From a virus (Duplodnaviria > Heunggongvirae > Uroviricota > Caudoviricetes): a DNA stretch of 34,102 nt. Shown piece after piece: positions 1 to 11,978 of the stretch; within the stretch, counting starts at the first letter, position 1, and each line of letters begins with the position of its first letter. Location: IMG/VR virus record IMGVR_UViG_2778261316_000008; one strand, given 5' to 3'. Made by a program: the position numbers and the translations under genes. The notes beneath the pieces are model-generated. The model was not told the origin of the DNA. It ran no database searches and saw only the letters and a list, made by a program, of their open reading frames with translations.

Positions 1-330
1 TCAGTAACCAAACAACGCCCATTTTAGTAGTGCATCTGCATCATTCTTCAAACTTCCAAGGTCTTTTCCTGGTGAAATTGTTGCCGCTACACCAAGCGCA
101 TTAAGTCGAAGCTGTGCCTGATGGAATCGACTCTCTTGCTGTAGGCCCAGAATTTCATTTTTATTCGCGACAGCATAACGCTGAATGGCTGACTTCGATA
201 CGCTGTAACCTTTATCGGCTAACCAGAGCGAGAGCCATTCATAACTGGTGAAGTTTGTGCGCGATAATTCGCTATGAAGCTCGGCACGAACATCCTCTGG
301 CAGTTTATCAATATTGCTTGGTCTGGCCAT
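1..330 (-). CDS. DUF3486-like protein (short paralogue of the gp27-like ORF at 12611-13156)
   Basis: ATG at 330 preceded by AGGAGG; N-terminal ~55 aa (MARxSxIxKLPEDVR...GYxxSKSAIxRY) clearly alignable with the 181-aa ORF at 12611; stop codon at bases 1-3. Confidence 0.6.
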   Translation of the reverse strand: MARPSNIDKLPEDVRAELHSELSRTNFTSYEWLSLWLADKGYSVSKSAIQRYAVANKNEILGLQQESRFHQAQLRLNALGVAATISPGKDLGSLKNDADALLKWALFGY

Positions 331-349
331 CTGTCCTCCTATAAATAGC

Positions 350-739
350 TTAGCTATTTTCCACCTTCTCTGAATCAGAGTCACCATCAAACAGTTTGCC
401 CTGCATCCGATCCAATTCTTCTTTTCTGACCCGCTTCACCACGCTGTAAACCCACTGTAGTGAAACACCGAATTTGCGGGCCAGTTCGTGATGGTTGCGT
501 CCGTCAAACTCCAGGAAGATTTCCCGGTCGCGCTGACTGACCTTCCAGACCATGCCCATCGGAAAATAGACGTTTTGCCCACCCCAGACCTGCATCATGC
601 GGTTCGCGACGGCCTGACCAATCTGGTCGGCAACTGCGGGTTCGATATCAATAATCTCGCGGACGGTCTCAGAGGTATGCTGTGCCAGTTCTACCAACAG
701 TTCCGGCCCTTTACTACGAAACTGATTCAGGTCACTCAT
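350..739 (-). CDS. Mor/C-family transcriptional activator (middle/late gene activator)
   Basis: 129-aa ORF from ATG at 739 (MSDLNQ...); C-terminal region (ELARKFGVSLQWVYSVVKRVR) has the HTH pattern of Mor-family activators; position after GemA-like gene as in Mu. Confidence 0.75.
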   Translation of the reverse strand: MSDLNQFRSKGPELLVELAQHTSETVREIIDIEPAVADQIGQAVANRMMQVWGGQNVYFPMGMVWKVSQRDREIFLEFDGRNHHELARKFGVSLQWVYSVVKRVRKEELDRMQGKLFDGDSDSEKVENS

Positions 740-1164
740 TGCTTCACTCCCGCAGCTCTGCTCTGCCACTTCTTCAGTTTCTCAATCACGCTACTTGCCT
801 GCTCATTGCTGAGCCAGCGTAACGCGCTGATGCCTGTTTCCCGTTTAACCCACAGCGCCAGCGCCTGCTCTGAACTGTCTCGGACGATGCCTGCGGCAGC
901 CATTTCAAGCCATAGCGCACGGATTTTCTTTGACTGCGGATGACTATCCAGCGGTAAGCCGGACCTGGCTTTCCCGGCAGGCTTAATGCGAAAGCCTTTA
1001 TTTTTCATGGATTCCAGCACGCGGTTTAGCTGTGGGGTATCCATCCCTTTGGTTGAGGCTTTGCCGGTCAGCCCCTGTAGCATCTGGCGGTAGGTGTCCT
1101 CATCCATCTGGAGGTCGCTGCGGGCAATATGAATGAGTTGAATAAGACGCTGCTTAGTCATCAT
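736..1164 (-). CDS. GemA-like protein (Mu gp16 family)
   Basis: ATG at 1164 (MMTKQRLIQLIHIARSDL...); motif LIxLIHxA...DDTYR...LxxxTGK resembles Mu GemA/gp16; 4-nt overlap with downstream activator gene. Confidence 0.65.
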   Translation of the reverse strand: MMTKQRLIQLIHIARSDLQMDEDTYRQMLQGLTGKASTKGMDTPQLNRVLESMKNKGFRIKPAGKARSGLPLDSHPQSKKIRALWLEMAAAGIVRDSSEQALALWVKRETGISALRWLSNEQASSVIEKLKKWQSRAAGVKQ

Positions 1165-1369
1165 TGCCACTCCTTTTACCTGCGCCACCGATATAGTCGA
1201 CATATAAAGGAAGCGCAACAGGCCAGCACAGGAACATAACGGCCCAACTGATCCAGTGTCCGGCACCGCTGTAACGTGAGTAAAACCCTGAACGGCGGTG
1301 CAGTTCAGCAGTACACCACCCCACGAGACCATACCAGAACAGGGCACATACAATTGATTCAGCCATCAT
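1154..1369 (-). CDS. small membrane protein (two predicted TM helices)
   Basis: ATGATG start at 1369; hydrophobic segments IVCALFWYGLVGW and WISWAVMFLCWPVALPLYV; 11-nt overlaps with both neighbours suggest translational coupling. Confidence 0.4.
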   Translation of the reverse strand: MMAESIVCALFWYGLVGWCTAELHRRSGFYSRYSGAGHWISWAVMFLCWPVALPLYVDYIGGAGKRSGNDD

Positions 1370-1586
1370 AATGAATACCACCCCAGTTAATATGAATGTT
1401 ACGGGCTGTAGTAACCGGATCGTTATTCCACCATGCACCTGACATGTAATTTTTAACCTGTTCTCGTCCAGCGATAACGCCAATTTGAATGCCGGGCCTT
1501 ACGTTCTTAAAAAAGGCGCGTGCAAAAAGATATTTAGCAGCTGTACGGCAAGGGTTCGGTGCTTTCTTCTTACGCGATAACATCAT
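1359..1586 (-). CDS. hypothetical small basic protein
   Basis: 75-aa ORF with ATG at 1586 overlapping stop of upstream gene; no recognisable domain. Confidence 0.35.
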   Translation of the reverse strand: MMLSRKKKAPNPCRTAAKYLFARAFFKNVRPGIQIGVIAGREQVKNYMSGAWWNNDPVTTARNIHINWGGIHYDG

Positions 1587-2272
1587 CTTTCAGCCCTCAG
1601 TTTATGCTGCTCCTGCCCGCCAACGGGCTGATGCAGGCGGACGTTTTCCCCTTCTCTGTAACCGATGTGGCGGGACATGTCTGCGTCACGTGATTTCCCG
1701 GCCCCACGGCCCGTAGTTGTGCCTGAGTCAGGGTATTTTTGTTCAAGCCAGAGGCTTGCCAGCTCCCGTTCTTCGCGGGACATAGCAAATAAATGAACCT
1801 CGCTGCGCACGGCCAGAACCCAGCCTTCGGCAAATTTGTCACCACGGCTGGTCTTGGTCGTGTTTTTGATTCTTTTATTCTGCTGTCGAATATAGTTTTT
1901 ACGGGCCATGATTAATTGTCTGGCCAGTACCTCCCATGTATATGAGGCCAGTTCAACCCGGTCTTTATTACCGTAAAAGCCAACGCTGGGTTTAAAGCCG
2001 GAGTGAATAATAGACTTAACGCCAAATGCCACCTGGATAATGTCCAGCAGACCCAGCATGTAACGCGGCGGATTAACGCTACCTGCAGCCCAGTAGTTAC
2101 TGACGCTTTCATCAATATCACTGAGTGCGAGGTCAGCCTGGGTGATGTTATAGGCTTGCATCAGTTTCTGGGCGCGTTGCAGTGCCAGTGCCGCTTCATG
2201 GGGGTTATCGGATTTAGCCAGCGCAAGTAGCTTTTTTAACTTCTCCAGCAGCTTTTCATTATTCTGCGGCAT
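1583..2272 (-). CDS. DUF2786-like protein
   Basis: N-terminus KLLEKLKKLLALAKSDNPHEAALALQRAQKLM matches the pattern I associate with DUF2786 proteins; ATG at 2272. Confidence 0.55.
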   Translation of the reverse strand: MPQNNEKLLEKLKKLLALAKSDNPHEAALALQRAQKLMQAYNITQADLALSDIDESVSNYWAAGSVNPPRYMLGLLDIIQVAFGVKSIIHSGFKPSVGFYGNKDRVELASYTWEVLARQLIMARKNYIRQQNKRIKNTTKTSRGDKFAEGWVLAVRSEVHLFAMSREERELASLWLEQKYPDSGTTTGRGAGKSRDADMSRHIGYREGENVRLHQPVGGQEQHKLRAER

Positions 2273-2555
2273 AAGTCACCCCCAGGCGTTCGGCAAGGCG
2301 TTCCAGCTTTTTCTGCTTATGAAAATCAATCATCAGGCCCATTCCGTTGAGGCGGAACTGTTCAATCATGATTTCAACGTCAGCCAGTTCGCCAGCCAGA
2401 TCAACTTCACTTCCCAGTCCGTTCATGTTGCGGGCGGCAGCAGCGGCCAGCTCGGCGGCTTCTTCCATCAGCTTCAGCGCCTGTGCTTCAGGGCCAAAGG
2501 TTTTCAGGGCCAGATTGTATATAGTGGAGCGGTTATATAATTTCATGCCTTTCAT
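2259..2555 (-). CDS. hypothetical protein, possible MazG-like all-alpha NTP pyrophosphohydrolase
   Basis: ATG at 2555 (MKGMKLYN...), ATGA overlap with upstream Zn-ribbon gene; pattern EEAAELAAA...ELADVEIMIEQF...KQKKLERL resembles MazG-type motifs (recall, not searched). Confidence 0.45.
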   Translation of the reverse strand: MKGMKLYNRSTIYNLALKTFGPEAQALKLMEEAAELAAAAARNMNGLGSEVDLAGELADVEIMIEQFRLNGMGLMIDFHKQKKLERLAERLGVTYAAE

Positions 2556-2740
2556 TTTTTTGCCTCGCAGGGGATGAACTCCATGGCCGGAACTTCGGTG
2601 TAGTAATGCTGGCTGCAGTGAGGGCATACCAGCGTGATGAGGACGGCTGGCACATGGTATTTACCAGAGGTAATGACGCTGGCGTCGCTGAACTTCAGGG
2701 TGGTGATACCTTTCTTACAGTTGGAACATTTGATGGACAT
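2552..2740 (-). CDS. small zinc-ribbon protein
   Basis: 62 aa with CxxC (CSNC) and CxxC (CPHC) pairs spaced about 35 residues apart. Confidence 0.5.
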   Translation of the reverse strand: MSIKCSNCKKGITTLKFSDASVITSGKYHVPAVLITLVCPHCSQHYYTEVPAMEFIPCEAKK

Positions 2741-2818
2741 GATTTATTCCTCAATGCTGTTTTCGGCGTGCAGAAGCCCACGGAGCTGACGCCGAAATAA
2801 AAGGAAATTGAATTAAAA

Positions 2819-3430
2819 TTAAATGGCAGCGATATCTAACGGAATATTAATTAGCTTCCCGTGTTTATCTTTCTCCCGGAAATTAATATAGGTTTTGGAC
2901 ATTGCCACCTGCAGTGATTCCGATATGGCCTCCATTGCCCGGTTCCAGCGCTCGTCCTGAATCTTGACGCGGCGCAGGGAAAGAATACGTCCGGTATTAA
3001 GCTGGCCCTCTTTGTCCACCTGAAAAGCATCGCTGATGATGGCCCGCAGGTTGGCGTTCGCGCCTTCCGACCACTCGGTGACGCACTCGTCTATCAGGTC
3101 TTTGGCAATCTGCAGCTCTGGCCCGAAGGTCAGGGTTTCCTGCACGCGGATGGTGATCTGCTGAGCACCGTCGAAGCTGCTGAAGGTCACGTTGCCTTTG
3201 GCACCGCCACGCGTTCTGCCGTACTTCTCGGCCACAAGGTCAAGCCAGGCATAGCACTCGTCAAAGGCACGACGCTTGAAGTCACTGAGTTCATCGCGTT
3301 TAACCTTCGCGGCGACAACCTGTTCTTTAACGAAAGAGTCCATCGCAAGGTCATAGTCAGACACCTGGTCAACCGGCACCAGACGCCCCTTGCGGTCTTT
3401 CATGTAGTTTTCTTTATTTACTTCGCTCAT
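2819..3430 (-). CDS. DUF3164-like protein (common in Mu-like early regions)
   Basis: 203-aa ORF; sequence pattern recalled from Mu-like prophage early-region proteins; assignment from memory. Confidence 0.55.
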   Translation of the reverse strand: MSEVNKENYMKDRKGRLVPVDQVSDYDLAMDSFVKEQVVAAKVKRDELSDFKRRAFDECYAWLDLVAEKYGRTRGGAKGNVTFSSFDGAQQITIRVQETLTFGPELQIAKDLIDECVTEWSEGANANLRAIISDAFQVDKEGQLNTGRILSLRRVKIQDERWNRAMEAISESLQVAMSKTYINFREKDKHGKLINIPLDIAAI

Positions 3431-3447
3431 CTCTGTTCACCTTATGG

Positions 3448-3717
3448 TTAATGTAACGACTCTGACCAGGTAATACGGCAGCCATGCAACTCAAAGACAC
3501 CCTGACGGAAGCGCCCTGAGCCGTCATGGCCAACATGGGTATAACTCGCTTTGCCCTGCTCCAGCAGGCGGGCACAGTGCCCGTTGCGGGCGATACGGAT
3601 AACCGGCTTACTGCCAGCAATCATGACGCTCTGCACGGTAGTGTTCATGGCGTTGAGCGCCATAATGGCGGACTGCACCTTGTTCATCTGCTGGTTGATA
3701 TCGGCGATGGATTTCAT
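3448..3717 (-). CDS. hypothetical protein
   Basis: 89-aa ORF, ATG at 3717 preceded by AAGGAG, immediately downstream of the ATPase stop. Confidence 0.5.
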   Translation of the reverse strand: MKSIADINQQMNKVQSAIMALNAMNTTVQSVMIAGSKPVIRIARNGHCARLLEQGKASYTHVGHDGSGRFRQGVFELHGCRITWSESLH

Positions 3718-3719
3718 GA

Positions 3720-4886
3720 TTAAACTCCTTTGACGACGTCGGCGTTGACCTGCGGGACCCCGATTTCAGCAGCCAGATTCATGGCGGCTATCACCAGGTT
3801 ACTGACGGCCAGCGGATACAGCAGGCTGACCATGCTTTTACGGCTACTACCCAGATTGCTCAGACGGGCGCGGATGGCTTCCACTGCGCTGGCGTCCATG
3901 ATGTCGGCCAGCTGCTTACCGGCACGTTGCAGTTTGAACGTCAGAAACTCTTCGAGGCTGTTGTCCAGCGGCAGCAGTTCAACCACCTCGCAGCGCTGGA
4001 CGACCTCACGGACTTCCATGTTGCGTTCGGACAGTTTGTCCGCCAGTTCAGGCTGGCCAATCAGCACGATGGACAGCAGTTTTTTGAAGCCGGACTCCAG
4101 TTCGAAGAAGCGTTTAAGGTGCTTCAGCGTCGGAATGGGAAGGCTGTGGGCCTCCTCAATCACCAGAACGTGGCTGAAACCCGCCTGACTGCTGTCCTTC
4201 AGGACTCGGTGCAACTGGCGGAAGCGGGCGTCCTGGCTGCGCTTGATACTCTCCAGCGGCGCGATGGTGCTGATGATGGCCTCGGCGATAGCTGCCGCCT
4301 TCAGGGTTTTGCCCTTCACGTCGTTGTCTTCCATGGCGATGATGTATGGCTCGATTACAATCACCGGCGCGTTCTCGCGGTTGACGCGTTCAATCAGGTC
4401 GCGGCGCAGCGTGGATTTACCCGCACCGGACTCGCCGATAACCGCCAGAAAGCCACCATGGCGGGCGGTCTGGAACAGCGCCTCACGCACGTAGCGGATA
4501 TCCGGCGTGGTGAACACATCGTCCGCGCCCTGCATGGCTTCATCGGCGAACGGATCACGGAAAAGGCCAAACGCTTTTTTGGTTGCTGGAAATAACACCT
4601 GCTTTTTGAGTAACATGTTCTCTTCCTCACTGAGGTTGGTTTTATCGGTAGTACCCGCTGTACGGGGCGTGACAGCGCCCTGTGCAGCATCAAAACTTTT
4701 CGCTGTATCAATCCCCTTACTTTCCAGATACAACGCCAGACGCTGGCGTACCTCTTCGGGGCTGGTGCGTGGCCACTCGTTATGGTTCACAATCTGGGCC
4801 AGCGTGGCCTCGGAAACGGCGACGGCTCTTGCCACCACCGCCTGCGGGATGCGGGCCTCTTTCAGTTGTTGCTTCAGTACCAGCAT
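3720..4886 (-). CDS. AAA+ transposition ATPase (MuB/TniB/ExeA-like)
   Basis: Walker A GESGAGKST, Walker B-like hhhVIEEAH; N-terminal HTH-like region; directly downstream of DDE transposase; RBS GGAGGAAGG. Confidence 0.8.
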   Translation of the reverse strand: MLVLKQQLKEARIPQAVVARAVAVSEATLAQIVNHNEWPRTSPEEVRQRLALYLESKGIDTAKSFDAAQGAVTPRTAGTTDKTNLSEEENMLLKKQVLFPATKKAFGLFRDPFADEAMQGADDVFTTPDIRYVREALFQTARHGGFLAVIGESGAGKSTLRRDLIERVNRENAPVIVIEPYIIAMEDNDVKGKTLKAAAIAEAIISTIAPLESIKRSQDARFRQLHRVLKDSSQAGFSHVLVIEEAHSLPIPTLKHLKRFFELESGFKKLLSIVLIGQPELADKLSERNMEVREVVQRCEVVELLPLDNSLEEFLTFKLQRAGKQLADIMDASAVEAIRARLSNLGSSRKSMVSLLYPLAVSNLVIAAMNLAAEIGVPQVNADVVKGV

Positions 4887-4896
4887 GCCTTCCTCC

Positions 4897-6666
4897 TCAG
4901 TTACCGTTAACGATGCTGATAACGCTGTTGCGGGCCGGAGTGGTCAGGGTAACCATCACCTCATCCAGCGCGGCTTCAGGTACGCCATCCGGGTACTGCG
5001 CCGTTAACTGGCGGTAATGTTCCGGCGTCCAGATATGGCCGTTAGCGCCAAACTTCTCGCGCAGGGCTTTCGCCGCCTCCACATGGGTCAGCGGACGCTG
5101 CTCAATACGCGGCCCGCGCACGTCTGAAGCCTGACCGCGCTTCGGCATATAGGCCGGAAGCGTGGTGTCGTCGATATGTTTGTACGGGTCAAGTCGCCCG
5201 CCGAACGGCAGCGCCTTCGCCTTGCGTGCAGCAGCTGCATCGGTGGCGTTATCGGTGCCCGTAACCAGCTCTTCGATTTCTTTTGCCGCCGTCTGCGCCG
5301 GGGTCTCCGGCAGGGCTTTGTAGTTTTCGCCAAATACCGCCGCGCTTTCGGCAAAGCCGAACTCGTTCTTTCTGACCTCCTCGACCAGGAAGAACGTCTC
5401 GTGACCGTCCTCACCGGTCAGCACCACCTGCGCCACATCGCTGCGCCACGGGTTACGGGTAATCATCAGTTTTTCGCCGACCAGTACGCCCGGTACCGTC
5501 GAAACGTCAAACTCATTGCCCCGGAACGAGACGCGCAGTTTTGGTGTGACCTTACGGAGTTCCGGTGCGGCCACCGCCAGTTCGCGGCAAACCTCAACGG
5601 ATGGCGCTTTTTTCAGCTGGTCAGCAGTAATCTTCAGCCAGATATCCGTGCGGGTTTTACCGTGGCGGCTGTGGACCGCCGTGGCGTTAAAGTGGCTGCG
5701 CCATTTCACCGCCAGTGCGTTCAGTTCGTCCAGGCTATGAACCGGCTGGAATTTGAGACCCGGCTCCAGTTTACGTTCGATAATGTCACGGGCCTTTTCC
5801 ACCTGCCCGGTGGCGCGGGCGTTATGCGGCTTGTGCGCTATCAGATTGATGCCCAGCGAGCGGCACATGTTTTTCGTCATGCCAGCGGTGTTCGCCGAAC
5901 CGGGATCAAGGTAGAGTATTTTCGGCACGCCGTGCAGCACGTCCGCGCCGCCGCGCTCCTGCATGGCGTTGATAAGCACAGAACAGAGGTTCTCACCAGA
6001 TTCCGCACCCATCACGTACTCAACGTAAATCCAGCCGCTGGTATGGTCGGTAATCTCGTAACTCCACACGCGGTCACTGGCGATGCGGGCGATGTTGGCA
6101 GGCTTGTTCTTGTAGAACTTCGAGCTGTCCATCACCTGCAACCCTTTATGGCCGTTGCTCAGGTAGTAAAGCGTACAAAGTGAGGCATCAATCTCCCAGA
6201 CGTGATTGGGATGCAGGCTGGCCATCTCGGACGACGGGGCCGGTGCGTCAAGCTGTTCCGGGTGCAGACCATAGTTCCGCAGGGCGCGGCTGATGGTGTC
6301 CTCGGACAGCGGGAAAAACTCGCCTGTGGCCTCGTCCGTTCTGCCAGCAGTGATAAAGCCGTTTGACCGCAGGGTCTCCACCGCATCCGCGATGGAATAC
6401 AGGCGCTTACCGTTCTTACGGGTGGCCTCGCGCAGCGTGGCAGATATCAGCGCGGCTTCGTCGCGGCTCAGGGCACTGCGCCCGGCATCGGCGCGTTTTT
6501 TACGTTTGTCAGTCACTGATACCTCCTTCAGCTTGCGCAGCAGGGTGGCGCGGGAAATGCCCAGTTCGGCGCAGGCGGCATCATATATCGCACCACGCTT
6601 ACCATGCCCCGCGTCACGTGCCGCGCGGGCAACATAAACCAGTCGTTCAGTCAGGGCGGCACTCAT
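4897..6666 (-). CDS. DDE transposase (Mu A-like / rve integrase core)
   Basis: 589 aa; N-terminal HTH, integrase-core-like region (HPNHVWEIDAS...LYLDPGSANTA...) and C-terminal Mu-transposase-like region; RBS AGGAGG before ATG at 6666. Confidence 0.85.
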   Translation of the reverse strand: MSAALTERLVYVARAARDAGHGKRGAIYDAACAELGISRATLLRKLKEVSVTDKRKKRADAGRSALSRDEAALISATLREATRKNGKRLYSIADAVETLRSNGFITAGRTDEATGEFFPLSEDTISRALRNYGLHPEQLDAPAPSSEMASLHPNHVWEIDASLCTLYYLSNGHKGLQVMDSSKFYKNKPANIARIASDRVWSYEITDHTSGWIYVEYVMGAESGENLCSVLINAMQERGGADVLHGVPKILYLDPGSANTAGMTKNMCRSLGINLIAHKPHNARATGQVEKARDIIERKLEPGLKFQPVHSLDELNALAVKWRSHFNATAVHSRHGKTRTDIWLKITADQLKKAPSVEVCRELAVAAPELRKVTPKLRVSFRGNEFDVSTVPGVLVGEKLMITRNPWRSDVAQVVLTGEDGHETFFLVEEVRKNEFGFAESAAVFGENYKALPETPAQTAAKEIEELVTGTDNATDAAAARKAKALPFGGRLDPYKHIDDTTLPAYMPKRGQASDVRGPRIEQRPLTHVEAAKALREKFGANGHIWTPEHYRQLTAQYPDGVPEAALDEVMVTLTTPARNSVISIVNGN

Positions 6667-6669
6667 GGG

Positions 6670-7578
6670 TTATGCCTCCTGCCCGTTAATCTCTGGCGTC
6701 GGGTCAGTCAGCCATGAAGGGGCGGCGTTGCCTGTCGGCTCGTCCGGCAGGTCAAATGTGGAGCGCAGGCTACGCGCGGTGCTTTCCAACTGGCAGACCA
6801 GACCGGCCATAAAGTCTCTGGGGGTATCAATCATATTTTCAGCACAGTATGCGCACAGGGTCTCAAAGGCGCTGGACAGTCGAACGGCGATGGCAGATTC
6901 CGCCTCAACCGCTAACGCTGTAACTTCCGCACGCAGCTTCTTCACCTCTTCGTCAGGCTTGGGCGGCTGGATACGGGATTTCTTCTCCAGTTTTGTGGAG
7001 AGCGAGTCGATTTTTTCGTTTTTGTCGGCAAGCACGCGCTGTTGTGCTGCGTTGGTTTCACGCGCTTCGCGTAGGGCCGCTTTCAGTTCGCGGCTTGTCA
7101 TGCGATCAATATCATCGAGGCTCATACCAGCAATCGTGCCGCCATCGGCTAATTCGACGAGGTCTTCGTCATCTTCCGTCATCAACTCAAACAGCTTTGT
7201 TTTACCCAAAAGCGCAAGCGCTTGCGCTTTTGGTTCAAGCTTGGGAGACAAATATTTGAGGGATGCTTGCATCATCACCTGCGCGGTACGTTTGGATAGG
7301 GACAACTGAGACTCAACGATGTCGATGAAGTCACCATGTGGTTCATTTTCTTTGAGAATTACCAGTCGTTTACCCGCCTCCAGCATGGCTTCAGCACTCT
7401 GAGCCATATAAAAACGTGTTTCATGGACAATACGATCACGTTCATACGGCAGGCCATCACCAAACTGCTGCATGATTTCGAGGCGATGTTCGGACATAGC
7501 ATTAAGACTGACACTGAGACCATCGGTCAGCGGTGCATCTTCCACTAGTTCAACTGGTTGTGATTTTGTGCGTCCCAT
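6670..7578 (-). CDS. hypothetical coiled-coil protein
   Basis: 302-aa ORF between the wHTH gene and the transposase; charged/coiled-coil central region; no confident family. Confidence 0.55.
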   Translation of the reverse strand: MGRTKSQPVELVEDAPLTDGLSVSLNAMSEHRLEIMQQFGDGLPYERDRIVHETRFYMAQSAEAMLEAGKRLVILKENEPHGDFIDIVESQLSLSKRTAQVMMQASLKYLSPKLEPKAQALALLGKTKLFELMTEDDEDLVELADGGTIAGMSLDDIDRMTSRELKAALREARETNAAQQRVLADKNEKIDSLSTKLEKKSRIQPPKPDEEVKKLRAEVTALAVEAESAIAVRLSSAFETLCAYCAENMIDTPRDFMAGLVCQLESTARSLRSTFDLPDEPTGNAAPSWLTDPTPEINGQEA

Positions 7579-7587
7579 TTCAACTCC

Positions 7588-7893
7588 TTAGCGACTACCA
7601 GCCATAACACGCTGGTTAATTTCATTGATACGATCCTGCGCCCGCGCCATTTCGGTACTGTGCGCCATGGCGATTTGTAAGAGCTGGACTCCTGGGGCAA
7701 AACGCCCGTTATCCAGTTTCAGGGCCAGTCCTTCTTCGATAAGGGTATTGAGCGCCCGATTGATATTCGCCGGGGACTCGCCCAGAGCTGACGCCAGCTC
7801 GCCGTTAGAAACACCGTTCAGAGCGTGACCGCGTAAAGCCTTAAGGACACGCAAAATACGGGTACCTGAGCTTGATGTATTTGGTTTACTCAT
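7588..7893 (-). CDS. small winged-HTH DNA-binding protein (IclR-N-terminal-like)
   Basis: 101 aa; RILRVLKAL...VSNGELASALGESPANINRALNTLIEEGL resembles the IclR-type HTH. Confidence 0.5.
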   Translation of the reverse strand: MSKPNTSSSGTRILRVLKALRGHALNGVSNGELASALGESPANINRALNTLIEEGLALKLDNGRFAPGVQLLQIAMAHSTEMARAQDRINEINQRVMAGSR

Positions 7894-8114
7894 GACGCCT
7901 CCTTGAGGATGCCGGGGGTAACTTCTTTGCCTATTGCGACCGAAAGGTCTCGCAAAATCCGATAAGTCAAACGACCGCGTGGAAGTTCGCTTTTGCCTGC
8001 CCAGCGGCTGACAGCCTGGGTGACTGTTCGTGGCTCATAGCCCGCGTTAAGCGCGAACTGGCGCAAGCTACTGCCTCTTTCAACCAGCCGTGCCCGAACT
8101 TGTTGTTTGTTCAT
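7890..8114 (-). CDS. Ner-like DNA-binding protein (putative early/lytic regulator)
   Basis: 74 aa from ATG at 8114 (alternative GTG at 8120); LRQFALNAGYEPRTVTQAVSRW resembles Ner/Nlp family; first gene of the leftward arm, divergent from the repressor. Confidence 0.5.
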   Translation of the reverse strand: MNKQQVRARLVERGSSLRQFALNAGYEPRTVTQAVSRWAGKSELPRGRLTYRILRDLSVAIGKEVTPGILKEAS

Positions 8115-8202
8115 ATGCACCGTGTTCCTGTTGGGTTATGATGTACTCTATTGGGTCTATTGTACGCACCCGAACGGGTATGTCAAATTGAGATATGTTC
8201 AA
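8115..8202. promoter_or_regulatory. divergent promoter/operator region between Ner-like gene and repressor
   Basis: 88-bp gap between divergent start codons; two copies of CT(R)TTGGGT(Y)TA at 8129-8140 and 8149-8160 spaced 20 bp apart. Confidence 0.5.
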
Positions 8203-8613
8203 ATGAGTATAAAAGAGAGATTGCGCGAAGCGATGGATGCTAAGAGTCTGACAATTAAGGCATTGTCAGACTTGTCAAAAATTCCATATCGCTCACTTCA
8301 AAACTATCTGCGTGGAGAGAGAGAACCTAATGCAGAGGCTCTTGTTGCGCTAAGCACCCATTTGAACATATCAATAGATTGGCTACTTACTGGTAAAGGG
8401 GAAGCTGTTGGGGTAGAGAAAGCACAGCCAGCTAATCAGGAGCAGCATTTCAACCAGTCTGATCTGAAGTTATTGGAGCTGCTCAACCAACTGGAGCCAG
8501 AGGTGCGAAAAGAGTTGCTGCGAGGCGCTGAGGAAAAACAGCGAATGATTGATATGGAAAAACAGCTTAAGGAGCTGTCCGCAGCGTTCGAAAGATTAAA
8601 AAATACGGGTTAA
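8203..8613 (+). CDS. XRE-family HTH repressor (putative lysogeny repressor)
   Basis: ATG at 8203 (MSIKERLREAMD...); N-terminal Cro/C1-type HTH, C-terminal coiled coil; divergent from Ner-like gene; AT-rich. Confidence 0.7.
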   Translation: MSIKERLREAMDAKSLTIKALSDLSKIPYRSLQNYLRGEREPNAEALVALSTHLNISIDWLLTGKGEAVGVEKAQPANQEQHFNQSDLKLLELLNQLEPEVRKELLRGAEEKQRMIDMEKQLKELSAAFERLKNTG

Positions 8614-8648
8614 TCTGTTCCTATTAAGAACATTAGAGGTATAAGGAC

Positions 8649-9182
8649 ATGACTATGCGCAAATTATTTTTACCGTTGATATTTGTTTTATCTGGGTGTG
8701 GAGATAATACCGATCCTGCTGATACGTCCACCACAGCTAAGGAGCACGCGGTTTTTAGCGTTGAAACAGATAATCCGGTTGTAAATCGCGAATTACCGTT
8801 TATTCGCCAACAACTCCCCGGCCTGGATAAGTACGCGGACAGTTTTGAAAAAGTCGAAGTATCCGAGGATAGCGAACGTCCGGTGACAACGGTGCAGTTT
8901 CATATTAAAGACGAAAATAATATTCCAAGTGACTACATAGCCTCTGGTCATAATTGTTATTTGTTCATATCAAATAATGCCCACGAAGTGAAAATATCTA
9001 AATCAGCATGTCAGGCTGTTTTTTTCGATAAAACGGATGTTCCTGGTGGAGACCTGACCGTGAAACTTGATAAGGAAAAAGTTCCTATGACAGATGATGG
9101 TAAGACCCCGCGAGCAGGTTGTTTGAAAGCTTATTCACCAGAGCCAGATAATGATTATTGGACTTGTCCAAGGCAGGATTAA
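8649..9182 (+). CDS. lipoprotein (moron candidate)
   Basis: Signal peptide MRKLFLPLIFVLSGC with lipobox LSGC, Gly at +2; four further Cys; markedly AT-rich relative to late genes; 36 bp downstream of repressor with no intervening hairpin. Confidence 0.7.
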   Translation: MTMRKLFLPLIFVLSGCGDNTDPADTSTTAKEHAVFSVETDNPVVNRELPFIRQQLPGLDKYADSFEKVEVSEDSERPVTTVQFHIKDENNIPSDYIASGHNCYLFISNNAHEVKISKSACQAVFFDKTDVPGGDLTVKLDKEKVPMTDDGKTPRAGCLKAYSPEPDNDYWTCPRQD

Positions 9183-9189
9183 ATGTTTA

Positions 9190-9212
9190 GGTGGTGCTGC
9201 AGATGCACCACC
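9190..9212. terminator. GC-rich hairpin between convergent lipoprotein and methyltransferase genes
   Basis: GGTGGTGC-TGCAGAT-GCACCACC (8-bp stem, 7-nt loop) followed by ACCTTT; lies between two convergent stop codons. Confidence 0.45.
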
Positions 9213-9229
9213 ACCTTTAACTACCTCTT

Positions 9230-10000
9230 TCAAAAATTACAAATTACCAGCTCTTTCTTCGGGCTGGGTTTGCCTGTTACCTTAAGGTTGTAGCTGATAT
9301 CAACCGACTGCATGTTCAGACCGTTGAATACCTGCCGCATTTCCGGGATATCGTTCACTGATATAATCATCTTCCCTTTGATCCTTCGCGCTAAATCTGC
9401 CATGTGATCATAGTTTTCCAGCCCGAACTCCACACCATAGCCTTCCGTTCCCCAGTACGGTGGGTCACAGTAGAACAGCGTATGCGGGCGATCATATCGC
9501 TCTATGCACTGGTGCCAGTCCAGATGCTCTATCAGCGTTCTCGACAGGCGCAGGTGTGCCATCGACAGTTCTTCCTCAATACGCAGCAAATTGAAGCGCG
9601 GCGCACTGGTTGTAGAGGTACCGAATGTGTGATCGGCGACCTTGCCGCCAAATGCCTGTTTCTGCAGGTAGTAGAACCGGGCCGCCCGCTGAATGTCGGT
9701 GAGCGTTTCTTCCGGCGTATCCTGCAACCATTTGTAAATCTGACGGCTGACCAGCGCCCATTTGAACTGGCGAATAAATTCTTCCAGATGATGCTTGACC
9801 ACCCGATAGAGGTTCACCAGTTCCCCGTTGATATCGTTAATGACTTCGGTCTTGCTGGGAGTCTTTAGGAAATAGAGCGCAGCTGCCCCGCAGAACGGCT
9901 CCACATAGCAGGTATGGGCCGGAAACAATGGTAAAATATGCTTCGCCAGACGACGTTTACCGCCAATCCATGGGACGATGGGTAAAGATTGTTCTTTCAT
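9230..10000 (-). CDS. Dam-like N6-adenine DNA methyltransferase (D12 class)
   Basis: DPPY motif (LFYCDPPYWG), SAM-binding-like EPFCGAAALYF; ATG at 10000 (alternative TTG at 10024). Confidence 0.8.
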   Translation of the reverse strand: MKEQSLPIVPWIGGKRRLAKHILPLFPAHTCYVEPFCGAAALYFLKTPSKTEVINDINGELVNLYRVVKHHLEEFIRQFKWALVSRQIYKWLQDTPEETLTDIQRAARFYYLQKQAFGGKVADHTFGTSTTSAPRFNLLRIEEELSMAHLRLSRTLIEHLDWHQCIERYDRPHTLFYCDPPYWGTEGYGVEFGLENYDHMADLARRIKGKMIISVNDIPEMRQVFNGLNMQSVDISYNLKVTGKPSPKKELVICNF

Positions 10001-10247
10001 TATCCGTAAGCCTTTTGCAATCAATGAAAATATGGCAGGCTAGTCTGGTCTCGCGAGACTGACTGAACCCTGGTCGGCTCACAGTGCATACCTGTGGGTT
10101 GATGACCAGCCTGGTGTTACCGCACCGGGCTGGTCGTTCTTTCAAAGCCATCATGCGGTTCACGTCTGCATCCTCACTATTAACGCTGTTTAAAATCCCT
10201 TTCCCCGACCATTTGTGATGCTGTCTCCACTACACAAGGAGACGCTC

Positions 10248-10598
10248 ATGAAAAACCTGAAAAAATTCATTCCCCCTGTTAAAAAGCCACGTCTCAGCGG
10301 CTGGCTGCTGACCGCTGTGCTGCTGCTCGGCACCATCGGTCTGGTATCGCCCCAGCAGCTGCCGGTGGTTGTCTACAAGCTATCACTCATCACGCTGGCG
10401 GCAGTATTGGGCTACTGGCTTGACCGTTCGCTTTTCCCCAAAGCCCGTCCCGGTCAGTACCTGAAGCATGATGACAGGCTGATGGCTGATGGTCGCTTCC
10501 CTGTCCAGACTGGCCTTCACCTGGTCTTTTCTGCTGCGCTAATCCGCCGTGCGCTGATTGTTGCTGCAGTCTGTCTGGCCGTAGCGATGGGGCTTTAA
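10248..10598 (+). CDS. holin-like membrane protein
   Basis: ATG at 10248 with AAGGAGA RBS; three hydrophobic helices; immediately upstream of and overlapping the endolysin gene. Confidence 0.5.
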   Translation: MKNLKKFIPPVKKPRLSGWLLTAVLLLGTIGLVSPQQLPVVVYKLSLITLAAVLGYWLDRSLFPKARPGQYLKHDDRLMADGRFPVQTGLHLVFSAALIRRALIVAAVCLAVAMGL

Positions 10599-11335
10599 TG
10601 ATGACCCTCTATATGTACTGGCCTCAGGTTGTCTGGGCCGTGCTGGTACTGCTGGGGCTGGGCATCGAACTGGCCCGCTACGGGCAGGCCCGAACGGGTA
10701 AGCACAGTTTCTGGTGGCAGCTCTTTGGTTCAGTAACGGTAGCCTGGCTGCTCTGGTGTGGCGGCTTCTTCAGTCAGGCCCGCGCTGCCCAGCCACCGCA
10801 GACCGCGCTGCAGTATCGCGACGATGTGATCCGTAATGCCCGGCTTGAATGGGGAATGTCTGCGCCGGTGGCCGACTTCGCCGCGCAGCTGCATCAGGAA
10901 AGCGGCTGGCGACCTGATGCGGTCTCGCCGGTTGGCGCTCAGGGACTGGCGCAGTTTATGCCCACCACCGCTGACTGGATAAGTCAGCTGATGCCGGGGC
11001 TTAACAGCCGTGAACCGTTTAATCCGTCTTGGGCCATCCGGGCGCTGGTCAGCTATGACCGCTGGCTGTGGCAACGCGTCAGCGCCGTCAATGACTGCGA
11101 GCGTATGGCCATGACGCTGTCAGGCTATAACGGTGGTCTGGGCTGGGTACAGCGGGACAAACGGCTGGCCTCGCAGCAGGGGCTGGACAGCACCCGCTGG
11201 TTTGGTCATGTCGCCACGGTGAATGCCGGACGCAGCACTGCCAACTGGCGGGAGAACCGTCATTATCCGCAGCGCATCCTGCACGAACTGGCCCCGCGTT
11301 ATCTCACCTGGGGAGGCGGCAGCTGTGTGGACTAA
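10598..11335 (+). CDS. endolysin: lytic transglycosylase (SLT domain) with N-terminal membrane/SAR-like region
   Basis: SLT motif QESGWRPDAVSPVGAQGLAQFMPTTA; two N-terminal hydrophobic stretches. Confidence 0.75.
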   Translation: MMTLYMYWPQVVWAVLVLLGLGIELARYGQARTGKHSFWWQLFGSVTVAWLLWCGGFFSQARAAQPPQTALQYRDDVIRNARLEWGMSAPVADFAAQLHQESGWRPDAVSPVGAQGLAQFMPTTADWISQLMPGLNSREPFNPSWAIRALVSYDRWLWQRVSAVNDCERMAMTLSGYNGGLGWVQRDKRLASQQGLDSTRWFGHVATVNAGRSTANWRENRHYPQRILHELAPRYLTWGGGSCVD

Positions 11336-11978
11336 CCTGCTAAAAAATCTGCCGTGGCGCAGTCTGCTGCTGGCGGTGGTCATAAATGCTTTTCTGATTG
11401 GGCTTTATTACCTGGGCTACAAAAGCGGGCATGAAAACGCCACGCGCGACGGCGATAAGGCGGTCAGTGAGTTGCAGTCAGCATTCGACACGTACAAAAC
11501 GGAGCAGGCAACGCTTGAGAACGCTGCGTTGCGGGCTTGGGCGAAACGGTATCAGGAACAGGTAGCCGCCGGGCAGCAGGCTGAAGCCAGTTACCTTGAG
11601 CAGATTGCTCAGCTTGAGAGCCAGAACAAACAACTACAGGGGCAAATTAACGATGTCACACAGCGCTGGATTGATGAAAAAGGTAAGAGCCATCCCATTG
11701 AGTGCGTGTTTACTCGCGGTTTCGTGCGCCAGTACAACGCCGCGCTCGGATATGACAACGCATCCGTCGACGCCGGTCATTCAGACGCAACTGCCGCCGC
11801 TGGCACCGGCACTCGCGCAGCGTCCGGGCAACCTGCAGCCGCTGACGCCTGGCTACGCGACTCAGGCGTCTCCCAGCGTGACGTCCTCGCCAACATCATC
11901 GACAACGCGAAGCAGTGTCGCATCTGGCGCGGCCAGATAAACGGGCTGCTGGACGAACGGGAAGGATTACAGAAATGA
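11325..11978 (+). CDS. i-spanin (Rz-like)
   Basis: GTG at 11325 after GGGAGGCGG; N-terminal TM helix then long coiled-coil periplasmic region; follows endolysin. Confidence 0.6.
   Translation: MWTNLLKNLPWRSLLLAVVINAFLIGLYYLGYKSGHENATRDGDKAVSELQSAFDTYKTEQATLENAALRAWAKRYQEQVAAGQQAEASYLEQIAQLESQNKQLQGQINDVTQRWIDEKGKSHPIECVFTRGFVRQYNAALGYDNASVDAGHSDATAAAGTGTRAASGQPAAADAWLRDSGVSQRDVLANIIDNAKQCRIWRGQINGLLDEREGLQK
11674..11940 (+). CDS. o-spanin (Rz1-like lipoprotein) embedded in the +1 frame of the i-spanin gene
   Basis: MKKVRAIPLSACLLAVSCASTTP: signal peptide with lipobox AVSC, proline-rich mature region, wholly inside the Rz-like ORF. Confidence 0.55.
   Translation: MKKVRAIPLSACLLAVSCASTTPRSDMTTHPSTPVIQTQLPPLAPALAQRPGNLQPLTPGYATQASPSVTSSPTSSTTRSSVASGAAR

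Follow-up and report, generated by a model that had tools for sequence, protein, structure and literature searches.

An orphan D12 adenine methyltransferase gene of a BcepMu-like prophage is accompanied by a covarying RNA element on the opposite strand

Several methyltransferases of transposable phages and prophages have been described with which the locus reported here can be compared. This locus lies in a 34,102-nucleotide (nt) stretch of viral DNA (IMG/VR record IMGVR_UViG_2778261316_000008), referred to as the window; it comprises a gene for an orphan N6-adenine DNA methyltransferase of the D12 class (hereafter the methylase) and a structured RNA element located on the other strand, directly upstream of the methylase start. 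The named members of the methylase family are ORF48 of phage B3, gp27 of phiE125, the methylases of VP882 and MuM16-1, and M.EcoMIV of Escherichia coli. M.EcoMIV is a prophage-borne orphan D12 methylase whose transcription in mid-log LB cultures is significantly lower than that of dam; no methylation motif could be assigned to it in strain EC958, by 2015 a site was known for none of its homologues above 65% identity, and its tentative REBASE class is type IIA, which denotes an asymmetric site (PMC4659465, Forde et al. 2015). A literature search found no paper beyond Forde et al. 2015 that mentions the specificity of M.EcoMIV. The activity of B3 ORF48, annotated 'Dam', was untested at the time of PMC3299994. 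The MuM16-1 methylase is among the proteins common to sipho- and myovirus Mu-like phages, the methylase tested in the same study being KASIA_p114 and not MuM16-1 p50 (PMC8541194). The E. coli Dam (EcoDam), T4 Dam and DpnM enzymes share with the window methylase their Pfam family, the motif order FxGxG, recognition domain, DPPY, and the AdoMet-binding and catalytic residues.

The EC958 variant of the methylase (WP_000783854.1, an 84% identical protein) is the published M.EcoMIV (EC958_1101): the gene is 765 bp long and the published quantitative PCR primers map to it so as to yield the stated 190-bp amplicon. Like the window methylase, M.EcoMIV is carried by a BcepMu-like prophage (Phi2 of the pandemic lineage ST131), occupies the slot between repressor and holin and has the RNA element upstream (79.3 bits with the covariance model R1 described below); it differs in that three extra small genes separate the element from the holin gene in ST131, and the element was not noted in the published work. 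B3 ORF48 is 64.5% identical to the window methylase, also belongs to a transposable phage and is likewise accompanied by the RNA element on the opposite strand (60.5 bits), but in B3 a Com-like zinc-finger translational regulator (ORF47) stands between element and methylase, inside the late region. No Com homologue was found among the window open reading frames (ORFs) upstream of the methylase by ORF inspection and Pfam searches. A 68-amino-acid (aa) ORF at 9957-10163 (minus strand) was considered as a Com-like candidate and discarded, as it lacks CxxC pairs and matches no Pfam family, and any Com-like small protein upstream of the methylase is disfavoured by loop indels of 1-5 nt in hairpins H2 and H3 (see below), which break every frame among homologous copies. 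The likeness to Hia5, Hin1523 and Nma1821 and to mom/com of Mu is one of presumed mode of action: these are adenine-modifying genes of transposable phages, expected to act late and to protect DNA, and relatives of the window gene are found at the mom position, many transposable phages having a methylase homologue 1-2.7 kb from the genome end, where mom lies in Mu. Hia5, however, belongs to another subfamily (B3 ORF48 was not retrieved with it), and Mom is an enzyme with an acyltransferase fold. The window methylase lacks Com and, instead of lying downstream of com at the genome end, sits between the immunity and lysis modules.

The gene itself is the following:

9230-10000, minus strand: D12 orphan N6-adenine DNA methyltransferase gene (Pfam, TIGR00571, PADLOC, PDB sequence matches and RefSeq)

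The ORF is uninterrupted and encodes 256 aa from an ATG at 10000; an alternative in-frame start, TTG, lies upstream at 10024. Residues 11-232 match Pfam PF02086 (MethyltransfD12; E = 1.1e-27, 97.9 bits against a cutoff of 22) and cover positions 1-246 of its 253 positions. When aligned with HMMER, the AdoMet-binding motif I, EPFCGAAALYF (residues 34-44), stands opposite EPFVGAGSV of EcoDam, and the catalytic motif IV, DPPY (residues 179-182), opposite the DPPY of both EcoDam and DpnM; the order motif I, recognition region, motif IV is that of the alpha class. Both motifs are invariant across the six family members compared. The initial annotation, which had proposed a D12-class adenine methyltransferase on the strength of DPPY and FCGAAALYF, is borne out in this respect: the two motifs are present, the profile is matched over its full length and the catalytic motifs are intact in the alignment to EcoDam and DpnM. 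The best PADLOC model is MTase_II (PDLC03253, E = 8.6e-114) and the RefSeq entry is WP_000664222.1, 'DNA adenine methylase'. The exact protein is found on more than 1000 contigs of Enterobacterales, which rules out a chance ORF. To judge by its sequence, the gene thus encodes an intact, functional-looking, phage-borne orphan methyltransferase of the alpha class (D12); as a gene it is real but ordinary, being already known and annotated. What makes the locus interesting is that a covarying RNA element is coupled to two methylase classes across many phage lineages.

The 140 nt adjoining the methylase start are conserved as much as, or more than, coding sequence. The structured element in this stretch spans about 110 nt (10035-10145, plus strand), and methylase and RNA together form a cassette of about 0.92 kb (9230-10146). 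The element is retained in KP12 and PhiKM and, according to a first scan of IMG/VR, in 54 contigs. A second scan was anchored on hairpin H2 alone, and the loci that it provided, among the matches listed, include at least about 65 new ones with the same architecture and with methylase homologues only 54-81% identical. The covariance model R1 was built from an alignment of 52 sequences (A4), and a second, model-based alignment (A5) was made from its matches. The parts of the window element are:

10035-10153, plus strand: whole covariance-model match (R1, 89.5 bits, E = 1.4e-20), with H1, P1, H2, H3 and a pyrimidine- or U-rich tail
10048-10059, plus strand: H1, core of the 5' hairpin, a perfect palindrome (GTCTCGCGAGAC); 6 of its 6 pairs show compensatory changes in A4 and A5
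10061-10068, plus strand: 5' strand of P1, GACUGAAC, which pairs with 10136-10143 and closes a three-way junction around H2 and H3
10073-10103, plus strand: H2, made of GGCUCACAG, a hypervariable loop of 6-7 nt and CUGUGGGUU (3' arm, 10092-10100); stem almost invariant and rich in G.U pairs
10104-10135, plus strand: H3, a GC-rich 13-bp hairpin (inverted repeat I2) in which the sequence varies and pairing is kept
10136-10146, plus strand: 3' strand of P1 and U-rich tail, GUUCUUUCAAA, the probable 3' end, resembling an intrinsic terminator

The window element folds on the plus strand into three hairpins with a minimum free energy of -58.5 kcal/mol (z = -7.24 against shuffles). All four helices H1, P1, H2 and H3 are recovered in A4, where 94.4% of the cells are paired and 23 of the 37 pairs change on both sides; the alignment holds 247 compensatory cells as compared to 80 in shuffles (none of 500 shuffles reaches the observed value) and 36-64 in slid controls. 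The corresponding figures for A5 are 95.5% pairing and 354 compensatory cells against 101 in shuffles. The long-range helix P1 covaries at 6 of its 8 pairs across the family (e.g. GAAGC/GCUUC, GUAGGC/GCCUAC and CAGGGC/GCCCUG), the window itself pairing at 6 of 8 positions, and H3 shows compensatory changes both within the enterobacterial set and across the family. The 3' strand of P1 and the tail suggest a terminated RNA of about 105-125 nt, as predicted from the sequence; clear U-runs are present in many family members, e.g. UUCUUUUUUU. The distance from the element to the methylase ATG is always 48-49 nt, while on the other side the holin gene lies 199 to 1612 nt away, depending on the cargo genes that related prophages have inserted directly after 10136-10146. 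H1 is self-complementary at its centre in almost all variants (TCGA, ACGT, GTAC, TGCA, CGCG, CCGG, GATC, CTAG), so that the DNA is a near-perfect palindrome; H1 may be a protein-binding site in the DNA as well.

R1 matches the window once only. It also has a single match in each of four phages outside its training set, VP882 (78.6 bits), MuM16-1 (77.3), phiE125 (68.7) and B3 (60.5, upstream of com-dam), always on the strand opposite to the methylase and directly upstream of it, and no match in BcepMu, which has no methylase. Coordinates of the element in other loci are:

L003 2189-2308, L064 1345-1466, L065 1333-1451 and L066 1340-1462, minus strand: RNA element in other loci (R1 match)

Across 96 loci, R1 has at least 77 matches (in L004-L165), among the matches listed; the carriers include about 70 IMG/VR contigs and are phages of Enterobacterales, Pseudomonas, Burkholderia, Vibrio and Shewanella along with many uncultured phages. 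A D12 homologue (54-100% identity, median gap 27 nt) is divergently adjacent to 68 of the 77; a further two adjoin a beta-class gene (PF01555), three are cut off by the end of the locus and four have no methylase. The beta-class cases are L120 (element at 3795-3907, minus strand) and L165 (880-993, plus strand), whose neighbour is an N6_N4 methylase (PF01555, E = 1.5e-45) and not a D12 enzyme, with a ribosome-binding region, GGAGGUUCAC-AUG, similar to that of the D12 genes. The presence of the element beside a beta-class methylase implies that the RNA is linked to methylase genes generally and not to one protein family. In one IMG/VR prophage (L042, positions 671-861) the element is retained, but of the methylase gene no more than roughly the first 100 nt are left, and unrelated genes take the place of the remainder; by its sequence this locus looks like a deletion derivative of the cassette.

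Is the element a functional RNA, and of which strand? Read on the plus strand, A5 contains 483 G.U cells as compared to 34 A.C cells (258 and 10 in an earlier enterobacterial set), which places the RNA on the plus strand. The same count disfavours the idea that the element is a structured 5' leader of the methylase mRNA, as do the consensus folding energies, -43 to -51 on the plus strand against -23 to -30 on the minus strand. Alternatively, the element might be no functional RNA at all, but a DNA-level operator and methylase promoter combined with an ordinary terminator that insulates the neighbouring operons. The palindromic character of H1 through its centre in nearly all variants is what one would expect of a dimeric protein-binding site, and the location is suggestive: the repressor operon of the window points at the element through the methylase gene, the late genes begin just beyond it, and in B3, phiE125, VP882 and MuM16-1 the element stands at the end of an upstream operon. 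Yet neither a terminator nor an operator needs four covarying helices, one of them a long-range helix closing a junction, the 14:1 excess of G.U over A.C is the signature of an RNA made from one strand, an extended -10 is conserved at a fixed distance 5' of H1, and the element also occurs beside an unrelated methylase class. We therefore consider a purely DNA-level element improbable.

The RNA family is absent from Rfam 15 (4227 families), in which the window element has no match at E<=5; the literature was not searched specifically for the motif, so that a description outside Rfam is possible. The only resemblance to a known family was sub-threshold: H2 and H3 of some relatives align to the full model of ctRNA_pGA1 (RF00236) with 29.5-38.4 bits, the gathering threshold being 45. 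Like this RNA and other plasmid counter-transcript RNAs, the phage element would be a small two-hairpin RNA that ends in a U-tail and lies opposite the leader of the gene that it controls; unlike them, it has the extra helices H1 and P1, is phage-borne and accompanies a methylase gene instead of rep genes. The resemblance is an analogy and not a membership.

The features relevant to expression of the two genes are:

10004-10012, minus strand: ribosome-binding region of the methylase, GGCUUACGG, a near-copy of the 5' arm of H2, GGCUCACAG
10037-10029, minus strand: candidate methylase promoter with extended -10 TGcCATATT (relaxed promoter scan)
10033-10041, plus strand: extended -10-like element of the RNA, TGGCAGGCT (family consensus TGnTAnnCT)

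Among the 69 distinct copies with a letter at the relevant columns, the extended -10 of the RNA has A at -11 in all 69, T at -7 in 68 and T at -12 in 64; the TG at -15/-14 is found in 53 of 66. In the enterobacterial clade, -12 is C and a -35-like hexamer, TTTGCA or TTTACA (TTTGCA in the window), lies 16 nt upstream at 10014-10019. The position of the extended -10, at a fixed distance upstream, suggests that transcription would begin at the base of H1. On the methylase strand, no sigma-70 promoter was detected in 10001-10247 by the consensus scan. The relaxed scan gave the candidate at 10037-10029, which lies in a stretch, AAAATATGGCAG, that is invariant in 38 distinct enterobacterial copies, and which would overlap the extended -10 of the RNA. 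Such overlapping, opposed promoters are reminiscent of momP1 and momP2 of Mu. The initial annotation had deduced from the orientation of the gene that its own promoter lies in 10001-10247; this may hold, since the interval contains a conserved candidate, but the consensus scan of the methylase strand is empty and most of the interval is taken up by the RNA element of the opposite strand. An antisense promoter within the methylase gene (TGGTAAAAT, 9929-9937, plus strand) was also considered and rejected, as it is not conserved and most copies read CGGCAGAAT; no excess of synonymous conservation was seen around it.

Being a near-copy of the 5' arm of H2, the ribosome-binding region GGCUUACGG is complementary to the 3' arm of the same hairpin. 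Of 45 distinct homologous leaders, 29 have the motif GGC[UC][CU][AG]C at most 25 nt from the AUG, as compared to 0.22 expected from shuffles, and the duplexes predicted between CUGUGGGUU and the leaders have a mean energy of -8.4 kcal/mol, against -6.2 kcal/mol for shuffled leaders (-8 kcal/mol or below in 59% and 20%, respectively). This complementarity and the overlap of the extended -10s suggest antisense control, promoter competition or both.

From the gene, its family and motifs, its orphan status, context and conservation, and from the structure, strand and methylase association of the RNA, we infer timing of expression, biological role and RNA mechanism as follows. The explanation of the whole locus that we favour, and hold to be probable, is an orphan D12 methylase cassette with an RNA gene, silent in the lysogen, serving against restriction in lytic growth and under the control of the RNA. 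The methylase would be silent in the lysogen and produced in the lytic phase; by modifying adenines of the phage DNA as it replicates, it would render packaged genomes resistant to restriction in the host infected next, a protective role analogous to that of mom or of the Hia5-type methylases of other Mu-like phages. The RNA module would probably govern methylase expression: the invariant 3' arm of H2, CUGUGGGUU, could pair with GGCU(C/U)AC at the ribosome-binding region and act as an antisense-type translational regulator, and the RNA promoter, which overlaps the sole methylase promoter candidate, could compete for RNA polymerase. It is possible, and we propose it tentatively on the basis of sequence comparison, that the element at 10035-10145 (plus strand) belongs to a family of small phage RNAs, not described so far, whose function is to control DNA methyltransferase genes. 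Such RNAs would have their own extended -10, be divergent from the methylase, gate its translation and transcription through the CUGUGGGUU arm and the promoter overlap, and keep a potentially harmful enzyme silent in lysogens; they would have been recruited by the alpha D12 and the beta N6_N4 classes and would be an RNA counterpart of Com/mom of Mu. This mechanism of methylase control appears to be undescribed so far, and the coupling suggests a general way in which temperate phages silence methylases in lysogens and switch them on in lytic growth.

Several points weigh against these proposals. The complementary arm of H2 is sequestered within a stable hairpin, and its predicted pairing with the ribosome-binding region yields short helices that contain many G.U pairs (about -8 to -9 kcal/mol). 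At -12 of the putative RNA promoter the enterobacterial copies have C and not T, and four assessable elements have no adjoining methylase. Kinship among the sequences inflates the conservation statistics, and the invariance of H2 is partly a matter of ascertainment, the second scan having been anchored on it. Expression of the methylase, methylation by it and the RNA ends are predictions from the sequence. Finally, if the target were GATC, the methylase would be redundant with the host Dam and the anti-restriction reading would be weaker.

Several observations bear on the target. The methylase passes the TIGR00571 'Dam family' subfamily model only barely (117.2 bits against a cutoff of 114.85) and falls far below the Dam equivalog NF008152 (69.8 against 441). 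DpnM (5.8e-16) and EcoDam (1.1e-14) are its nearest solved structures by sequence (PDB, phmmer), but the similarity is distant. EcoDam is said to contact GATC through K9, L122, R124 and P134 (beta-hairpin); the residues so reported are not conserved in the methylase, where the HMMER alignment puts P opposite K9 and FGGKVA opposite the beta-hairpin YNGLCR, so that R124 is replaced by A. Its own recognition-region residues are strongly conserved in the family, in enterobacterial, Pseudomonas, Burkholderia, Vibrio and Shewanella phages, which argues for a defined, shared site. The prophage contains 64 GATC sites where 155 are expected (ratio 0.41; 0.35 in the early arm, 280-8120, and 0.41 in the late arm, 10248-34102), as compared to a ratio of 0.81 in the adjacent host DNA of strain AW1.7; four of the 64 lie within the methylase gene and none within 10001-10247. 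Under-representation of GATC has also been reported for the EC958 prophages (PMC4659465, Forde et al.). The term 'Dam-like' used in the initial annotation is therefore appropriate in the family sense (TIGR00571, nearest structures) and unsupported in the sense of GATC-specific (NF008152, K9 and R124). More generally, the automatic label 'Dam' or 'DNA adenine methylase' should not imply GATC specificity, for which the sequence gives no support; another defined site, neither GATC nor promiscuous, is most likely. Finding the real site would complete E. coli methylome inventories, which list M.EcoMIV and its relatives as unassigned.

Three other views of the enzyme have to be weighed. If the methylase were a true Dam, it would keep replicating phage DNA methylated at GATC, thereby avoiding MutH nicking or serving Dam-dependent regulation instead of restriction evasion, a rationale summarised for T4 and T2 Dam in PMC8541194. 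The narrow pass of TIGR00571 and the fact that the two nearest structures are both GATC enzymes would agree with it, as would the observation that all m6A motifs detected in EC958 are explained by other enzymes, which fits a silent or a GATC-specific M.EcoMIV (PMC4659465). It is opposed by the failed equivalog model, by the replacement of K9 and R124 (whose roles are as reported above), by invariant recognition-region residues that are peculiar to the phage methylase family, and by the tentative type IIA class of M.EcoMIV (PMC4659465), to which may be added the annotation of phiE125 gp27 as 'similar to M.AlwI'. The GATC depletion of the prophage counts weakly against a phage-encoded GATC methylase, an argument that leans on the phage literature. 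Furthermore, many carriers infect Pseudomonas and Burkholderia, which are not known to have Dam. On balance, we hold a true Dam to be unlikely, if still a serious candidate.

The methylase might instead be a relaxed or non-specific enzyme of the kind found in Mu-like prophages (Hia5, Hin1523 and Nma1821), methylating adenines and, like mom in Mu, protecting DNA broadly. This would suit a transposable phage without mom, the more so since relatives of the gene lie at the mom position and, in B3, behind a Com homologue (PMC3299994); the methylase is moreover of the alpha class like Hia5, lacks the residues said to read GATC, and silence in lysogens would befit a toxic enzyme. However, B3 ORF48, with its 64.5% identity, is outside the 1000 proteins most similar to Hia5 (PMC3299994, Drozdz et al. 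2012), the methylase is much nearer to canonical Dam (phmmer 1e-14) than is Hia5 (15% identity reported, third PSI-BLAST iteration; PMC3299994), and the conserved recognition region suggests a defined site, all of which makes a Hia5-like activity very improbable. Kinship with the non-specific M.EcoGII was discarded, as M.EcoGII and M.EcoGI are beta-class enzymes (PMC5778455) and the methylase is alpha-class. That the methylase is half of a restriction-modification system with a nuclease nearby is next to inconceivable. The best PADLOC model does bear the label 'Type II methyltransferase', and a few near-identical database proteins are named 'restriction endonuclease subunit M' or 'DpnIIA'; but among the nearby ORFs of the window and of the variant loci no nuclease or defence family was found with Pfam and PADLOC, the methylase itself being the sole match, and the RefSeq annotation lists no restriction enzyme in the AW1.7 prophage or in its 12-kb left flank. 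The absence of an adjacent endonuclease gene noted in the initial annotation thus holds, and extends to the left flank of the prophage in this strain. At each of the 68 loci with a methylase, what directly precedes the gene is the RNA element and not a nuclease gene. In AW1.7 the prophage interrupts an Orn/Lys/Arg decarboxylase gene beside melR, and in EC958 a related prophage lies beside ycaL and cmk; since it transposes to different sites, a fixed chromosomal partner nuclease outside the prophage is not expected.

The cassette, an orphan methylase with its RNA element, is widespread. Methylase and upstream element are present in 555 of 5426 complete E. coli genomes (about 10%), mostly as a variant at 80-90% nucleotide identity that includes ST131, and a tblastn search found a homologue in 597 of 50,697 phage records. 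Members at 62-68% identity are found in Curvibacter phage TJ1, the Pseudomonas phages Bise, UMP151 and B3, Ralstonia phage YO374_1, Shewanella phage MuM16-1 and Acidovorax phage Aval, as well as in the Burkholderia phiE125/phi1026b group and in Vibrio phage VP882 with Halomonas phage phiHAP-1. The methylase alone adds little, being one more annotated prophage orphan, yet it is present in about one in ten complete E. coli genomes, pandemic ST131 among them.

By its gene content, the element carrying the methylase is a BcepMu-like transposable prophage of E. coli. Positions 8000-11500 of the window match 'Escherichia phage Phi06_2974 B' at 99.9% identity and, at 100%, a prophage present in E. 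coli AW1.7 and in several further strains. According to RefSeq, the leftward early arm of the AW1.7 prophage encodes Ner-like, IclR-type HTH and DUF3102 proteins, a DDE transposase, an ExeA-type ATPase, DUF2786, gp16 and Mor; a divergent HTH repressor is followed by the rightward arm with holin, SLT endolysin, spanin, terminase, portal, head and P2-like tail genes. This layout, with its DDE (Tn552-type) transposase, ExeA-like ATPase, Mor, divergent repressor and lysis/head/P2-like tail arm, is the BcepMu organisation as described in PMC2771037, with which the BcepMu record agrees, and the related phage PhiKM is classified as Bcepmuvirus. The window starts at the stop codon of a 129-aa ORF (1-390, minus strand) that has the size and position of Mor. 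Compared with the AW1.7 prophage (window 1-2700 against L001 12280-14741), the left part of the early arm departs from collinearity, with coordinate offsets that differ by about 288 bp and another set of ORFs. The window is thus a mosaic relative and not the AW1.7 prophage itself, despite the 100% identical methylase region.

The methylase occupies a variable cargo slot between the immunity genes (repressor and lipoprotein) and the lysis cassette, having the orientation of the early arm and converging with the repressor operon. To its left in the window are the repressor (8203-8613, plus strand) and, as left neighbour of the methylase, an ORF for a 177-aa lipoprotein-like product (8649-9182, plus strand) with a signal ending in LSGC; the right neighbour is the holin gene (10248-10598, plus strand; PF13272, E = 1e-41). 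The methylase is thus on the strand opposite to both flanking genes, as the initial annotation stated, but it was placed there in the rightward arm, whereas the gene actually lies in an accessory slot between the immunity and lysis modules and not in the late arm. The same slot holds gp18-gp20 and no methylase in BcepMu, the methylase and a DUF2441 gene in KP12, and the methylase and three small genes in ST131 Phi2 and PhiKM. The latter genes lie between RNA element and holin (L059 6903-8225, L062 6271-7596 and L004 2488-3810, ST131 Phi2/PhiKM) and encode proteins of 71 aa, of 134 aa (on the other strand) and of 242 aa, the last with the P-loop-like sequence GPVGSGKS; a weak match to AAA_30 is their only family match.

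The 177-aa lipoprotein-like ORF has no Pfam or PADLOC family match. Its C-terminal half resembles, by eye, the C-terminus of a 328-aa protein encoded at the same position in L042 (1609-2595, minus strand). It may be a repressor-linked moron, possibly acting in superinfection exclusion. Between this ORF and the methylase gene is the following feature:

9189-9216, either strand: 13-nt inverted repeat (repeat search I1, 92% complementary) in the 47-bp spacer between the convergent lipoprotein and methylase genes

The repeat could form a hairpin; it has no clear U-tract and was not called by the terminator scan. At the other end of the immunity region, a near-consensus sigma-70 promoter (8159-8186, minus strand; TTGACA, 16-nt spacer, TACAAT) points into the early operon, and a perfect 11-nt inverted repeat, AGTCTGACAAT / ATTGTCAGACT, is found at 8245-8272, within the repressor ORF near its start; the two are probably the early promoter and an operator. 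Finally, a motif resembling a late promoter, CTATTAAYGCnnTTTAAA, lies upstream of the holin gene at 10178-10198 (plus strand), with a second copy at about 33681 (minus strand), and may be a late (Mor-dependent) promoter element. It was discarded as a driver of the methylase, near which it occurs only on the plus strand, upstream of the holin. In KP12 and PhiKM (L002 and L004), copies of this motif flank the inserted cargo on both sides.

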